A stretch of DNA of 48,302 bases from Escherichia phage vB_EcoD_Opt-719: the sequence record OL539451.1; one strand, given 5' to 3'. Every line of letters starts with the position of its first letter. Within the stretch, counting starts at the first letter, position 1. The translations under genes and the position numbers were made by a program. Shown piece after piece: positions 4,008 to 47,929 of this stretch. The notes under the pieces were generated by a model. It was given only the letters and a program-made list of their open reading frames with translations, was not told the origin of the DNA and made no database searches.

Positions 4008-5106
4008 AATGCGTTATGACAGCGCTAAAGTAAAAGCCCGTTTCGATGAGAACGGGTTTCTAGTGGACACTCCAGTGGTTGCTCGTGTTGGTGTTCAAAC
4101 ATACTACATGCCAGATGGCTCAGAGCGCCGAGAGTTCCGACCAGCATCAGAGGTGTTTAAATCCGATTCCCTGCAAAGCTATCAGGGCAAGCCGCTTACG
4201 CTTGGTCATGTAGTTGTTAATTCAGATAACGCCAAGGATGTTGTAGTTGGAGCAGTATCTGGTGCAGCTATGCGTCAGGATTCTACAGTTGTCGTTCCTC
4301 TAACAGTTTACGATAAGCAGGCAATAGAAAAGGCTAAGTCTGGCGTTGCTGGTGAGCTATCGGTTGGCTATAACACTGTTGATATTGAGTCTCCTGGCTG
4401 GGGTAGTAACGAAACGGGTGAGTATAAGCTTGATGGAGAGTACGCAAGCCAGGATGATATCCCTGCTGATTGGGTACGCTTTGATGCCCTGCAAACAAAC
4501 ATCGTTGTGAACCACATTGCTCTGGTATATAAAGGCCGCGCGCAAGTAGCTAAACTGAATCTGGACGCGGAACAGGAAAACCCGTATACTGATACCGTTC
4601 AATCAAATAAAGAGGATAAATTGATGATTAAGATTAAACTGGATGGCGAGCAGGAGTTCGAAATCGCCCCGGAAGTTGCTAAGCACATCGAAGCTGTTAA
4701 AGCTGATGCAGAACAGGCAAAAGCAAAAGCTGACACCCTTGAAGCTGAGCGTGACGCACTGAAAGCTAAAGTTGATGGCATTCCTGCTGAAATTGAATCT
4801 GCCGTAGCGAAAGCTAAAGCTGATGCTGACGAACTGGCCGCTCTGGTTGCTACCGCTGCAGAAGCTGGCGTTAAAGCTGATGGTATGGATGCTAAAGCAA
4901 TCAAAGTTGCTTACGTTAAAGAAGTATCCGGCCTTGACGTTGCAGAGAAATCTGACGCATACATCGATGCGGCCTTTGATATCGCTAAAGATAGTGATAA
5001 AATGGCTGAAGTCCGCAAAGCAGTTGTTGCTGCGGATAAATCTGACGCTGCCGACGCGCCTAAGAAATTAGACCCGCGCGCTCGCCTCGCTAAATTGAAA
5101 AAATAA
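3997..5106 (+). CDS. putative head maturation protease/scaffolding protein
   Basis: 369 aa; globular N-terminal domain then long Ala/Lys/Glu/Asp-rich coiled-coil-like C-terminus; GAGGAGG RBS; between portal and capsid genes. Confidence 0.45.
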   Translation: MKSKMRYDSAKVKARFDENGFLVDTPVVARVGVQTYYMPDGSERREFRPASEVFKSDSLQSYQGKPLTLGHVVVNSDNAKDVVVGAVSGAAMRQDSTVVVPLTVYDKQAIEKAKSGVAGELSVGYNTVDIESPGWGSNETGEYKLDGEYASQDDIPADWVRFDALQTNIVVNHIALVYKGRAQVAKLNLDAEQENPYTDTVQSNKEDKLMIKIKLDGEQEFEIAPEVAKHIEAVKADAEQAKAKADTLEAERDALKAKVDGIPAEIESAVAKAKADADELAALVATAAEAGVKADGMDAKAIKVAYVKEVSGLDVAEKSDAYIDAAFDIAKDSDKMAEVRKAVVAADKSDAADAPKKLDPRARLAKLKK

Positions 5107-5649: not shown

Positions 5650-5678
5650 TAGTTTCACTTTAAATCGGAGGAATGAAA

Positions 5679-6965
5679 ATGGCTAGCTTCTTGGAATTGG
5701 TAAGAGATAACATTGATAAGGGTTTAGCGACAATGCAGCCCGTTCAGTTATCAACTGAGTTTACTGCAATTAAAGAGATTAGGGTAGCAACATCAATCAC
5801 CACGCCACAAACAATATCAAGGAGTGATGAAACAAAGCTAATGTATACAACTTACGGGCTTGCTAACGTAGCTGGTGGTTCATACACAGGACAATCGCCA
5901 AACGGAGTCCAGATGAAGGTTGAGTTTATGACTGACTCAACTTTGTTCGAAATCAAAACCATCGGCTCAATCGGCACTTACTCAATTTTTATTGACGGCA
6001 AACTGGTAAATGCTGATGCATTCGCTACGCCAAATGGAGAGGCGGTGAGCTGGATGCAAGTTAAAGCTAATGACGGAGTTATCAGCGGGAAACTTCGACA
6101 CGTTGAAATCTACGGCATCAACTCAGCATTCGGAGCCTTCGTGTTTGGTGCTGGCGACACGGTTAGTCGTGAAATCTCAATCAAGCGCCCGCTTATTTAT
6201 CAGATGGGTGATAGTTATACTTATGGAACTGGTGCTGGATTCAGGACTCAAGCTTACGGCTCATCTCCTGCCGTAAATGACTTCTATGCATTCACCAGGT
6301 CTCTTGGTTTTGATGGTATTGCTGAAGGAATTGGTGGATCAGGATGGAACTCAGCTGCCGGTCAGTATCCAATGTCTCGCGTGCAAACAAGGCTTGCAAA
6401 GCTAAATCGCAAGCCGTCAGTTATCTCCTGGGCGCTTGGATATAATGATGCCGCTGCCATCCTGACTGGAACAAATAGCCAAAAGCTACTAGTTTCGATG
6501 GGTGAGTGTCTCGCTGAGACTAGGAAGGTTTATAGTGACGTTCCAATCATCCAGATTAGCAGCGCAACGCCGAAGGGAATTACCACTGGAATTCAGAAGG
6601 TAATTGATTTGGTTAATGGTTTTTGTTCTGATAACGACATTCCAGTAATTAACATAAGTAGCTATGTTACTAATGCTAACTCGGCAATTTATACAGGAAC
6701 AGACAACGTTCACCCGGGAACTCTTGGCCATGAGTTTAGGGGAATGGCAATGGCTCGCGAGGTTCTGCTTGCAGCCTCGGGTCAGAAATCACTAACAGTC
6801 CCAGTTACGCCGCGTGCATTTAACGTGGTAGCAAGGCTGACTAAAAGTTTTGGAGTTACAATCTTCTCTGGTGTAGTAAATGCTATTGATGAGAATGATG
6901 TTGCCGGACAGCTATACTTGCAGACTGGTGCTCGAGTGGAAATTCTCTCAGTATCTCGCGCCTAA
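5679..6965 (+). CDS. SGNH/GDSL-family hydrolase domain protein
   Basis: ordered GDSL blocks in C-terminal half: GDSYTYG, GYND, DNVHPGTLGH; ~170-aa non-catalytic N-domain; start set to ATG 5679 (GGAGGA RBS spacing); track start 5673. Confidence 0.65.
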   Translation: MASFLELVRDNIDKGLATMQPVQLSTEFTAIKEIRVATSITTPQTISRSDETKLMYTTYGLANVAGGSYTGQSPNGVQMKVEFMTDSTLFEIKTIGSIGTYSIFIDGKLVNADAFATPNGEAVSWMQVKANDGVISGKLRHVEIYGINSAFGAFVFGAGDTVSREISIKRPLIYQMGDSYTYGTGAGFRTQAYGSSPAVNDFYAFTRSLGFDGIAEGIGGSGWNSAAGQYPMSRVQTRLAKLNRKPSVISWALGYNDAAAILTGTNSQKLLVSMGECLAETRKVYSDVPIIQISSATPKGITTGIQKVIDLVNGFCSDNDIPVINISSYVTNANSAIYTGTDNVHPGTLGHEFRGMAMAREVLLAASGQKSLTVPVTPRAFNVVARLTKSFGVTIFSGVVNAIDENDVAGQLYLQTGARVEILSVSRA

Positions 6966-6969
6966 TATC

Positions 6970-6992
6970 AAACCTCCTTCGGGAGGTTTTTT
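6970..6992 (+). terminator. rho-independent terminator
   Basis: hairpin AACCTCC-TTCG-GGAGGTT followed by TTTTTT. Confidence 0.75.
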
Positions 6993-7046
6993 ATTGCTCT
7001 TTTTCTGTTAGACTGTCAATGATTATTAACCAATCAGGAGATAAAG

Positions 7047-7577
7047 ATGGCTTACACAGAAATTGCTATGGCGGTAGGGAATTCACCTGAAATCTTAGCC
7101 AGGAACGTAAAAATGATGATGTCATCTGGATTTCAGCCATATGGTGACGTCCAGATGCTAAGCGGCACTCTCTTTGGCATGAAAATGGCCAAGGGAACAG
7201 CAAACAACGTTGAAGACTTTATGGTGACATCCGACACCACAGTTCAGGGATTGATTAACAGGGTTAACCGATATCTTTTGCAGGGCTGGAAAAGGTTTGG
7301 CAATGCTCACTTTGAGGATGGAGCATATCTTTCAGCACTTGCGAAAGGTGATTTTGTAAGTGATGAAGACGGAGGCTCAGGTGAAGCAGGCCCACAAGGT
7401 CCGATTGGTCCACAGGGTCCAGCAGGTCCCGCAGGCGCAGCTGGTCCGCAAGGTCCTCAAGGTCCAACTGGTGCAACTGGCCCAGCGGGTGCGGCAGGTG
7501 CTAAAGGTGACACTGGCCCACAAGGTCCGGCAGGTCCGCAAGGTCCTCAAGGTGAAACTGGCGAGGCTGGTCCATAG
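7047..7577 (+). CDS. collagen-like repeat protein, upstream segment ending at in-frame amber
   Basis: ~110-aa N-domain then ~22 uninterrupted Gly-X-Y triplets (GPQGP...); ends at TAG 7575-7577 inside the repeat. Confidence 0.6.
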
Positions 7578-8558
7578 GGTCCTATCGGCCCAACGGGCGC
7601 CACAGGTCCGGCTGGCCCAAAAGGTGATAAAGGTGATGCAGGCCCAGTTGGCCCGGCAGGATTAACTTTCCGCGGGATGTACGACGCAGCTACTGCTTAC
7701 GTTAAAGATGATGTGGTTACATTCAATAACTCTAGCTGGTTTGCTACCGCCGCTGTGACCGGAGAGAATCCAGATGTTAGCGATTCCTGGGAGTTGCTGG
7801 CCGCGCAGGGCGCTCCAGGTCCGCAAGGCGCAACTGGTCCAGCAGGCCCAACTGGCCCGGCAGGCCCTGCAGGTATTCAGGGACCTCAGGGAGAGAGAGG
7901 GCTTCATGGTGAGCAAGGTCCGTCAGGCCCGCAAGGCTTGCAAGGTGCAGCTGGTCCAGTTGGACCTCAAGGCCCAGCAGGTCCTCAGGGTGAGCGAGGA
8001 ATACAGGGTCCGGTTGGCCCTCAAGGATTGCAGGGTGTAAAAGGTGATCCAGGCGTTAATTCTACATATACACTACCTTTAAAAAACTACCTTGTAATAG
8101 CCCTTAATGAAGAGGAGGGGGCGAGGCAGACATTCAGGGTGCCAGAAGACAGTTCGGGAGCTGAAATAGCTTTTGTGGTCAGAAATAAAGATTCTTCAAA
8201 CACTTCACCATCTGGAGTTTATGAGCTGGGATGTGGAGTGACTGGTACGGCTTCAATGCACTTTTCAGGTTGGATTATTAGTAACCTTAACCAACCAGAT
8301 AAAATAAGATCAGCCTCTATGCTAATTGCTTCCATGACTAATAGTCAGCGATACTTTACGCAGTTAGCAATAGGAACAAGGGGTGATCTTTTTAAAGGTT
8401 GCTTAACCAATCAGGAAACTGGTGAGCTATGGTACATTGAGGCTTTTGGTACCAAGCCAAGAGGGGCAGGGCAAACCGACTTAGGTAGACTCTCAGTTAA
8501 GATTGAGAAAAGAGTTGATACAGTAGTTGGAAGCTTAACAAAATTCCCAAGAGTTTAA
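7578..8558 (+). CDS. collagen-like repeat protein, downstream segment in same frame (possible readthrough product or pseudogene remnant)
   Basis: frame open immediately after the TAG; Gly-X-Y phase continues for 10 triplets, second collagen run, then ~200-aa C-terminal globular domain; first ATG at 7677. Confidence 0.5.
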
Positions 8559-8598: not shown

Positions 8599-8626
8599 TT
8601 GTCCCAATCGAAATCTCGTGTATAAT
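8599..8626 (+). promoter_or_regulatory. sigma70-like promoter (-35 TTGTCC, -10 TATAAT)
   Basis: perfect TATAAT at 8621-8626 preceded by TG, 16-bp spacer to TTGTCC; ~40 bp upstream of capsid gene start. Confidence 0.45.
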
Positions 8627-42191: not shown

Positions 42192-42211
42192 TCATTAGCA
42201 AAAAGTGCTAT
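42192..42211 (-). promoter_or_regulatory. promoter-cassette motif copy (minus orientation)
   Basis: reverse complement AATAGCACTTTTTGCTAATG with TATAGT and CATCGACAACGAGGAG leader toward 41920..42138. Confidence 0.5.
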
Positions 42212-42214
42212 TCG

Positions 42215-42345
42215 TTCGATTTATGGATTGTTGCAGATATTGCAATGATTCACTTCACTATTGCATGTATAGCAATATTGCATCGATTGCAATGATTTTC
42301 TGGACTGTTGCGAAATTTAGCAATGATTGATGGATTGATGGAATG
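42215..42345. repeat. iteron-like array (GCAATGATT x3, ATTGCAAT palindromes, ATTGATGG x2); candidate origin/operator
   Basis: approx. coordinates; three direct GCAATGATT copies near 42241, 42288, 42319, two perfect ATTGCAAT palindromes and several ATTGCA/TAGCAAT half-sites in an ORF-free divergent region. Confidence 0.5.
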
Positions 42346-43328: not shown

Positions 43329-43870
43329 TGTTTGATTTCAAAGAGGATAAACTTACTTATGAGCAGGTGTTAGCAGCAGCAGCGGCAGACAATCTGCCTC
43401 CCTTGCGAGTATCAATAATTGCAAATGGTTACCGACAATCTGCAAATCTATGGCCTGAACTGGATAAGGTCAAAGATTTCGAACTAGACACTGGAGCTTT
43501 AAAGATTATAGAAATCCTCATTAATCAAGGAATGAGCAGTAAAGGTGTCGTTGGTCTCGGGTCACTATATAATACAGTAAGGAAAGTTAAACCATTCGAA
43601 GGTAAAAGTGAAGTAATTATGGATATCAGAGATGTCATCATCCCAAACCTTGATAAGCTTGGCTATGCATGCCTAATCGGAGATAAGATTTACATCAACC
43701 CTAAACTGCTTGATGGCAACCAGGACTGGACTTACAAGGTTAAGCTGCTGGAAGATGATTTCAACATCGACGATTGCGAGAAGATTGTTGACGAGATTAC
43801 TATCAAGGCAATTGATGAGCAAATCGAGAGGCTCAAGCGGAAGAAGAAGTACCTCCTGACCGGTAAATAG
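43328..43870 (+). CDS. ATPase-less mini-paralog of the 39438..41021 P-loop protein
   Basis: 180 aa; MFDFKEDKLTYEQVLAAAAADNLPPLRVSIIANGYRQSA and KGVVGLGSLY...CLIGDKIYINPKLL match the N- and C-termini of the 527-aa protein; ATG overlaps upstream TAA. Confidence 0.55.
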   Translation: MFDFKEDKLTYEQVLAAAAADNLPPLRVSIIANGYRQSANLWPELDKVKDFELDTGALKIIEILINQGMSSKGVVGLGSLYNTVRKVKPFEGKSEVIMDIRDVIIPNLDKLGYACLIGDKIYINPKLLDGNQDWTYKVKLLEDDFNIDDCEKIVDEITIKAIDEQIERLKRKKKYLLTGK

Positions 43871-46163: not shown

Positions 46164-46294
46164 AGATTCATAATGGCGAATACAGTAATTTTTACATTGA
46201 TGAGTGCGTTGAACTATATGAAGGATATGGCGAGCCAACTGCGTGCCATGGAGATGAGCTTGGTATCAGCTTTCCCGAAGAGCGTGAGGATTGA
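46160..46294 (+). CDS. hypothetical micro-ORF (44 aa)
   Basis: ATG overlaps upstream stop (ATGA); GAGG RBS. Confidence 0.25.
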   Translation: MKIHNGEYSNFYIDECVELYEGYGEPTACHGDELGISFPEERED

Positions 46295-46297
46295 TAT

Positions 46298-46540
46298 ATG
46301 AGCAAGTACAACCGAGAGATTATCGGCCTGGATGGAACGTTAACGACAGTCGATGTATATCGTGTTCTGGATGCATTCCAGGTAACAGACCCAGCAATTC
46401 AGCACGCAATCAAGAAAATGCTCTGTACTGGGTTGCGAGGCCACAAGGATTACCTCACCGACATTGATGACTCAATAGAATCACTTAGGAAAGCAAAGGA
46501 GCTTTACGGTCAGAAGAAGATAAATAGCACGAATTGCTAA
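46298..46540 (+). CDS. hypothetical protein (80 aa)
   Basis: track ORF; C-terminus NSTNC supplied by promoter-cassette motif. Confidence 0.45.
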   Translation: MSKYNREIIGLDGTLTTVDVYRVLDAFQVTDPAIQHAIKKMLCTGLRGHKDYLTDIDDSIESLRKAKELYGQKKINSTNC

Positions 46541-47827: not shown

Positions 47828-47929
47828 GCTCACGTTGCTAATGTTGGCCTAAGGGTGGAGCTTATACCTCCATAAAGCAATCACCAGATAAGTGATGTAA
47901 CGCAGGTTCGATTCCTGCCGTGAGCACCA
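47828..47929 (+). tRNA. atypical tRNA-like element (102 nt incl. CCA)
   Basis: perfect 7-bp acceptor pairing GCTCACG/CGTGAGC, T-arm GCAGG-TTCGATT-CCTGC, discriminator A plus CCA; two candidate anticodon stem-loops (CUUAUAC, CAGAUAA); D-region ~26 nt too long. Confidence 0.35.

Follow-up and report, generated by a model that had tools for sequence, protein, structure and literature searches.

A recent nonsense mutation probably truncates a nonessential collagen-like virion fiber protein in one clone of a T1-like coliphage

Introduction

Hendrix and Duda are said to have described, in 1992, how the stf gene of phage lambda PaPa is split into two open reading frames (ORFs) by a frameshift, the result of a 1-nt deletion. 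In phage SPP1, gp12 is encoded next to the major capsid gene; it is dispensable and very small, with few collagen triplets and no distal domains. This protein is a collagen-like auxiliary decoration of the capsid and, together with the dispensable head fibers of phi29, is thought to aid adhesion to surfaces (PMC7602432).

The direct orthologs of the gene considered here are Rogue1 gp21, JK06 JK_26, and Sf12 gp57. Rogue1 gp21 made up one of the three bands that were excised after SDS-PAGE of virions, the others being the major capsid and major tail proteins, and it was identified with 59.5% coverage by mass spectrometry (PMC3496638). Annotation of the family has been uneven. The label “DNA polymerase” is an old misannotation from JK06 that had already been flagged by the Rogue1 authors (PMC3496638).

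We examined the corresponding locus in Escherichia phage vB_EcoD_Opt-719 (OL539451.1), a coliphage of the Rogunavirinae (Drexlerviridae, T1-like), using its whole 48,302-nt genome as the window of analysis. Here, an amber codon interrupts the gene, and an original prediction made from the sequence alone had offered three explanations for it: programmed or host-dependent read-through, a very recent nonsense mutation, or a sequencing error. We conclude that the amber codon is an ordinary recent knockout, neither a sequencing error nor a recoding device. More fully, we consider it probable that a CAG-to-TAG nonsense mutation arose recently, became fixed in one clone, and truncates a nonessential accessory virion fiber protein.

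Results

A single amber codon interrupts a continuous reading frame

On the + strand, which carries all the mapped features of the fiber locus, positions 7047..8558 read as a single 504-codon frame from the ATG at 7047 to the TAA at 8556-8558, with a Shine-Dalgarno sequence (AGGAG, 7036..7040) placed 6 nt 5′ of the ATG. The frame contains one internal stop, the TAG at 7575-7577 (codon 177), and the ORFs at 7047..7577 (176 aa) and 7677..8558 (293 aa) are both pieces of it. That the two ORFs share one frame with this TAG as the sole stop had been proposed in the original prediction, and rereading all 504 codons bore this out. Read through, the interrupted gene would encode a collagen-like virion fiber protein of 503 aa (51.0 kDa), which matches phrog_5073 (E=2e-144) and Pfam Collagen (E=3e-27). 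The TAG-terminated product of 7047..7577 is 176 aa long (17.6 kDa) and comprises the N-terminal domain and ~21 Gly-X-Y triplets.

The TAG occupies the Y position of a GP* triplet, which is triplet 22 of the 32 in the first collagen run. As had been foreseen together with this placement, GPQ is the most common triplet of the fiber gene (13 of 58), and the Gln codons of the gene are divided between CAG (n=15) and CAA (n=14). Beyond the TAG, the Gly-X-Y phase is kept through nine clean triplets followed by GLT, which correspond to the ten in-phase triplets noted earlier. The 326 codons that follow the TAG are free of any second lesion, and the probability of 326 stop-free codons arising by chance is ~3e-9 at the observed base composition.

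Domain architecture of the fiber protein and its variation

The protein begins with a globular N-terminal domain (residues 1-110; 7047..7376), followed by collagen run 1, whose 32 Gly-X-Y triplets span residues 112-207 (7380..7667) and include the TAG. Next comes a CBM5/12-like (chitin-binding type 3-like) domain at about residues 208-254 (7668..7808), which matches PF02839 at E=0.0067, below the cutoff, and which is also reflected in the UniRef name of the Sd1 ortholog. Triplet reading then places the 27 Gly-X-Y triplets of collagen run 2 at residues 255-335 (7809..8051), and the protein ends in a globular C-terminal “knob” of 168 aa (8052..8555). The second collagen run and the C-terminal domain had both been anticipated in the original description of the downstream layout; the CBM5/12-like domain between the two collagen runs had been overlooked.

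The N-terminal domain is 92-95% identical in the relatives considered below and 26-41% identical in MM01, e4/1c, Phagiculus, and RobRod40. It has a weak match to DUF1737 and may be the domain that anchors the protein to the virion or trimerizes it. A TPR-like assignment was considered and rejected as spurious, since the only PDB matches were designed TPR repeats in which a 20-aa motif was summed across repeats. AlphaFold2 single-sequence models were of low confidence for both ends of the protein (pLDDT of 48.3 for the N-terminal domain and 34.9 for the knob).

The knob is the variable part. At least three unrelated versions sit on the same stalk: one in the Opt-719 clone, one in Sf12 and Sd1, and one in Rogue1, C119, phiKP26, and JK06. 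The Opt-719 version is known only from this clone. When 1.84 billion representatives were scanned in full with HMMER, no true homolog of the knob emerged, only four weak matches to repeats in giant proteins that covered query residues ~5-56. Likewise, a PDB sequence search gave no match for it, and a word-indexed protein search yielded 0 matches for the knob and one 90-aa Logan fragment for the N-terminal domain.

Stalk length also differs among relatives. The JK06 fiber has 278 aa owing to an in-frame deletion that removes both collagen runs and everything between them, and AKS96 gp08 follows the same plan in 294 aa, so the length of the stalk appears free to vary. Both the N- and C-terminal domains are nevertheless retained in every intact copy. 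This retention suggests that the full-length form matters in nature, and thus that the knockout may be costly in ways that laboratory growth does not reveal.

The amber codon is a genuine base shared by four records of one clone

Three other GenBank records, OL539467 (Sadiya), OL539447 (PhleaSolo), and OL539453 (the “Klebsiella phage” Opt-79), differ from Opt-719 by 0 base substitutions over 48.3 kb, and the TAG is present in all four. The only differences are an NN and an N in Sadiya, an extra A at 42319, and a block of ~130 bp that is displaced in PhleaSolo. Identical genomes came from samples taken in Denver and in southern California and bear three host labels, so our comparisons point to vB_EcoD_Opt-719, PhleaSolo, Sadiya, and Opt-79 being one clone carried within one laboratory. 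Sewage of different cities was the source of the phages, for which E. coli BW25113 served as the isolation host; they were plaque purified at least three times, and T1-like phages are noted as surviving drying (PMC9119101).

Were the TAG an error of sequencing or assembly, position 7575 would in truth be a C. The small defects within this batch of records could be taken to favor such an error, as could the tendency of collagen repeats to misassemble, of which the ambiguous bases in phiJLA23 and some frameshifted Logan proteins are examples. However, the same T is found not only in the four deposits but also in Logan contigs assembled independently for three or more runs (SRR17231353, SRR17231351, and SRR10580544), which span the TAG through unique flanks with 0 mismatches to Opt-719 and are each listed for two to four samples. 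The change is also a substitution in unique sequence, outside any homopolymer, and Illumina coverage was 17x for Sadiya, ~172x for Opt-719, and 2,162x (mean) for PhleaSolo (PMC9119101). Because independent contigs read through the site and the substitution lies away from homopolymers, the TAG is a genuine base; an error is very unlikely, with a probability that we regard as nearly negligible, and we reject this part of the original prediction.

Intact relatives carry a glutamine codon at the site

The gene is intact in five relatives, with 491 aa in Sf12 and Sd1 and 481 aa in Rogue1, C119, and phiKP26, and the alignment of these with the Opt-719 fiber is gap free to residue ~330. At the column of the TAG, Rogue1, C119, and phiKP26 have CAG, and Sf12 and Sd1 have CAA. 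In JK06, the in-frame deletion has removed the site and the gene is still uninterrupted. Inspection of the homologous locus, which had been put forward as a check, therefore found a Gln codon in five phages, a deleted site in the sixth, and an uninterrupted gene in all of them. On the evidence of this alignment, the ancestral codon is Gln and the lesion is a single C-to-T transition, CAG to TAG, in agreement with the one-step relationship to Gln that had been pointed out earlier.

We next consider selection on either side of the TAG. For codons 1-176, Nei-Gojobori dN/dS between Opt-719 and its relatives was 0.09-0.10; for codons 178-330, it was 0.06-0.17. Pairs of intact relatives gave 0.09-0.12. 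Since purifying selection downstream of the TAG equals that upstream, the downstream region has not drifted, which argues that the mutation is recent. By this measure, the nonsense mutation would be young relative to the divergence among these phages (dS of 0.2-0.7). Of the three explanations originally offered, a very recent nonsense mutation is thus the one that both the relatives and the dN/dS values uphold.

Neither a CAG-bearing sibling nor another copy of the Opt-719 knob was found in the phage collection, IMG/VR, JGI metagenomes, or GTDB genomes, and the latter three held nothing beyond Sf12, Sd1, and phiKP26. The mutation may have arisen in nature or in the laboratory. Two members of a Logan cluster (130 and 195 aa), both on a 46-kb contig, were considered as a possible second split gene, and we read them as a collagen repeat that was collapsed or frameshifted during assembly.

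The downstream ORF is most likely a gene-caller artifact

The GenBank annotation, in which 7677..8558 is a CDS named “DNA polymerase,” implies a different view, wherein the gene has been split into two working products, the 176-aa protein and a 293-aa protein that starts at the ATG at 7677. This ATG is in frame, lies 100 nt past the TAG, and is accepted by gene callers. However, it lacks a good Shine-Dalgarno sequence, the closest AGGA being 14 nt upstream, and the corresponding Met is a Val (GTG) in C119 and phiKP26. Moreover, the 100-nt gap from stop to start is too long for coupling, and a 293-aa product would be without the N-terminal domain, which is conserved in all the relatives. Given that the Met is internal and replaced by GTG in two relatives, that the AGGA is distant, and that the stop is 100 nt away, independent translation of the 293-aa ORF is unlikely. 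A gene split into two functional products strikes us as quite improbable, and the CDS is most likely a gene-caller artifact.

Tests for recoding and suppression

An intact frame downstream of a UAG, with its Gly-X-Y phase kept and purifying selection evident, is also what would be expected if the stop were read through. Leaky or programmed read-through in the style of Q-beta A1 would have the UAG set a fixed, low ratio of 51 kDa to 17.6 kDa product, giving capsids with mostly short stubs and few full fibers. Near-cognate tRNAs of E. coli can misread UAG as Gln, Tyr, Trp, Lys, and other residues, an effect that is conspicuous chiefly in cells without RF1 (PMC4333366), and insertion of Gln would restore the ancestral residue. 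A recent mutation, however, predicts an intact downstream frame equally well, and no stop is found at the same position in any of the six relatives examined. The sequence after the stop shows no sign of a recoding structure either: the 126 nt from the TAG onward fold at −40 kcal/mol, compared with −44.5 for shuffled sequences (z=+1.15), and so fold no better than shuffles. The +4 base after the TAG is G.

Nor does the rest of the genome suggest that UAG has a special meaning. Among 79 annotated genes, stop usage is TAA in 44, TGA in 28, and TAG in 7, and the TAG is a genuine terminator in six of the seven TAG-ending genes, including that of the large terminase; the in-frame TAG at 7575-7577 is the only one found. 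Since TAG ends six other genes, it has not been reassigned. ARAGORN and Rfam found two tRNA or tRNA-like genes in the 48,302-nt genome, a tRNA-Arg(CCU) and an Ile-like tRNA-like gene at 47828-47929, and a CUA anticodon is absent from both, so that neither can read UAG. The second of these is 99-102 nt long, with an anticodon of UAU in its minimum-energy, class-II-like fold and of GAU in the Rfam alignment, and its homologs in other phage records are annotated as tRNA-Ile. The original prediction was therefore right that tRNA-Arg(CCU) is no amber suppressor, although it had missed the tRNA-like gene, which also lacks CUA. With an unconserved stop, no structure behind it, no suppressor tRNA, and TAG serving elsewhere as an ordinary terminator, leaky or programmed read-through appears improbable.

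Suppression could alternatively come from outside the phage genome. A natural host or a coinfecting element might supply an amber suppressor tRNA, in which case the truncation would occur on laboratory hosts only, and CAG to TAG is exactly what a suppressor of the supE type, which inserts Gln, would silently correct. Yet the TAG allele is fixed on BW25113, in which the anticodons of glnV and glnX are both CTG (wild type), and which is hence not supE. We know of no other amber suppressor in the published BW25113 genotype. Furthermore, a suppressing host would extend the six TAG-ended genes, the large terminase gene among them. Suppression by a natural host is accordingly highly improbable, and neither the programmed nor the host-dependent form of read-through named in the original prediction finds support. 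In an RF1-proficient host, misreading should give only a trace of the full-length fiber chain. A recent knockout remains the reading that these results favor.

Likely location of the fiber on the virion

Around the locus, genes for a prohead protease, a cement-like protein (PF22758, E=6e-22), and an SGNH/GDSL hydrolase come first, in that order, followed by the fiber gene and the major capsid gene, and the slot directly 5′ of the major capsid gene is conserved among relatives. The hydrolase gene upstream of the fiber gene belongs to the PHROGs category head decoration. A hairpin with a T-run that resembles an intrinsic terminator (6970..6997) lies between these two genes, and a sigma-70-like promoter (TTGTCC-16-TATAAT, 8599..8626) lies directly 5′ of the major capsid gene.

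PHROGs and RefSeq name the family “tail fiber protein,” a label that competes with a head location. However, the prominent gp21 band of Rogue1 is more readily explained by a surface protein present in many copies than by a distal tail fiber, and so favors a head fiber, and separate large tail-fiber and tail-spike genes are found elsewhere in the Opt-719 genome. Based on gene order and the Rogue1 gel band, we lean toward the fiber protein being a head fiber or decoration protein. SPP1 gp12 and the phi29 head fibers would then be its counterparts in function. The family's “tail fiber protein” name itself stems from similarity in the collagen repeats.

Discussion

We suggest that the intact fiber would consist of an N-terminal anchor, a collagen stalk, a carbohydrate-binding-like domain, a second collagen stalk, and a variable distal knob, and that it may serve adhesion in the environment and not infection of a laboratory K-12 lawn. 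On a suppressor-free host, the ribosome would terminate at the UAG and release the 17.6-kDa product, which would lack the CBM-like domain, the second stalk, and the knob. Full-length chains would be made at most in trace amounts, via near-cognate misreading that inserts mainly Gln. The ~980 nt left untranslated could in principle bring polarity on the downstream capsid gene, but the sigma-70-like site at 8599-8626 would shield the capsid gene from it.

Given that these phages reach titers of >1e8 PFU/mL (PMC9119101) despite the TAG, the full-length fiber would seem to be dispensable under laboratory conditions. We infer from this that the fiber is nonessential, and the fate proposed above for the short product is similarly what we would expect from the position of the stop.

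There is a slim chance that the amber codon is instead a selected state. It could reflect laboratory adaptation, wherein shedding of the knob allowed better spread on rough K-12 lawns, and this would help explain the repeated recovery of one clone in one laboratory. Alternatively, it could be a leaky stop at which basal misreading as Gln gives capsids a tunable, sparse set of adhesive fibers among many short chains. We favor a recent knockout of the ordinary sort over either. This is a known kind of event, and the mutation as such brings no new biology.

What our analysis does provide is a correction to existing records, since four GenBank entries divide one disrupted gene into two CDSs named “DNA polymerase” or “tail protein,” and four published phages that were considered different, with separate cities and hosts reported for them, belong to a single clone. 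In addition, the Opt-719 clone offers a natural knockout for studying the abundant collagen-like fiber of Rogue1-like phages, with adhesion, stability, and host range as candidate roles.

How, then, does this locus compare with known systems? The nearest is the family of Rogue1 gp21, JK06 JK_26, and Sf12 gp57 (phrog_5073), with which the Opt-719 gene shares its slot in the genome, 92-95% identity in the N-terminal domain, two collagen runs, and the CBM-like insert. Two features set Opt-719 apart from this family, namely the amber codon at residue 177 and the knob, which is in no other record searched.

Several systems resemble the locus in that an in-frame UAG is followed by intact, in-phase coding sequence, as in Q-beta A1 and in conditional-lethal amber mutants. 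In contrast to Q-beta A1, the Opt-719 stop is unconserved and a recoding signal is absent. As in suppressor-dependent amber mutants, a sense codon became UAG by a change of one base, but the host carries no suppressor at glnV or glnX, and unlike conditional-lethal mutants Opt-719 grows on a host without supE. Phages of the code 15 type, in which TAG is read as Gln, differ as well, since Opt-719 has a single in-frame TAG, uses TAG as a terminator, and lacks a CUA tRNA.

With SPP1 gp12, the Opt-719 fiber shares the character of a Gly-X-Y collagen-like protein of a siphovirus, although the two have no sequence homology and capsid binding by the Opt-719 protein is a prediction, favored indirectly by its place in the head module and by the prominent Rogue1 gel band. 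The lambda PaPa stf gene offers a parallel for the lesion itself: in both cases, one point lesion has struck an accessory fiber gene, is tolerated on laboratory K-12, and has left two adjacent same-strand ORFs that are annotated separately. The difference is that Opt-719 carries a nonsense substitution in place of a 1-nt deletion, and that the appendage affected is probably one of the head and not of the tail.

Identical clones and record differences

The four GenBank "phages" represented by Opt-719, Sadiya (OL539467), PhleaSolo (OL539447), and Opt-79 (OL539453) are a single clone, with zero substitutions among them when the sibling records are compared to the entire window. The reported source of all four is sewage, collected in different cities, and their host labels name Escherichia coli, Klebsiella, and Serratia; further SRA runs from the same laboratory, the older-numbered SRR10580544 among them, also contain the clone's contig. 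Given this identity across cities and host labels, together with the recurrence of the contig in the laboratory's other runs, our results suggest carry-over of a T1-like phage within the laboratory.

The differences between the sibling records fall at window positions 4293, 22550, 32908, 42319, 43470, and 46172-46305. The window has an extra A at 42319 that is absent from the other three records, and a block of approximately 130 bp is found at 43470 in PhleaSolo rather than at 46172-46305. In Sadiya there are two N bases, as well as an NN within the prohead protease gene, which that record lists as a misc_feature. We also observed a mismatch in the host assigned to Sadiya, which is Serratia in the GenBank field and E. 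coli BW25113 in the associated paper (PMC9119101).

Collagen repeats in other records

Collagen repeats are prone to error and deletion in other records of the fiber gene. In phiJLA23 (L011, 1581-2480), the repeats contain ambiguous bases and a change of frame, while in JK06 (L012, 1580-2416) the whole middle of the gene has been lost by a clean in-frame deletion, and Logan proteins of related contigs (P0001, P0009, and P0010) carry frameshifts inside the repeats. A 101-aa "hypothetical protein" that Opt-79's annotation places over the collagen repeat in another frame (7360-7665, + strand) is almost certainly a spurious open reading frame produced by the G+C-rich repeat.

Variable modules at and beside the fiber

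Upstream of the fiber gene lies a gene for a 430-aa SGNH/GDSL hydrolase (5673-6965, + strand; phrog_9703, "head decoration"), flanked on its other side by a cement-like gene. We found this gene in the Opt-719 clone, Sf12, and Sd1, and not at that position in Rogue1, phiKP26, phiJLA23, or JK06, where the cement-like gene is followed directly by the fiber gene. The hydrolase may be an esterase displayed on the capsid.

The C-terminal knob of the fiber (8052-8555, + strand) is an orphan, with no homologue in phage records, IMG/VR, JGI metagenomes, or the PDB. A search of 1.84 billion protein representatives returned only weak matches to repeats within giant proteins (for example, 16 stretches of the 3,669-aa protein P0002), and these cover just residues 5-56 or so. 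Among close relatives, the same stalk carries at least three knobs that are unrelated to one another, which implies that modules have been exchanged where collagen run 2 ends.

Promoter-like repeat and second tRNA-like gene

A candidate promoter-like repeat consists of ATAGCAC, a few bases, a -35-like TTGCTAAA or TTGTTAAA, and, approximately 17 nt farther on, TATAGT or TATAAT. Example sites are at 2252, 23822, 26263, 34064, 35606, 37159, 43867, 45519, and 46524 on the + strand and at 42211, 41534, 41098, and 23463 on the - strand. Exact ATAGCAC occurs 17 times in the window (6.8 ± 2.7 expected), and the promoter-like motif also contains five of the six TAG codons that genuinely terminate other annotated genes.

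Directly 3' of tRNA-Arg(CCU) is an unannotated tRNA-like gene of 99-102 nt (47828-47929, + strand). Its Rfam tRNA score of 42.7 bits is reached only with a 33-nt insertion placed in the D-loop. Unlike that alignment, the minimum-energy fold (z = -2.8) is a class-II-like cloverleaf that has a long hairpin in the variable arm and CUUAUAC (UAU, Ile) as its anticodon loop. Similar sequences in phages of Pseudomonas, Pectobacterium, and Vibrio are annotated as tRNA-Ile.
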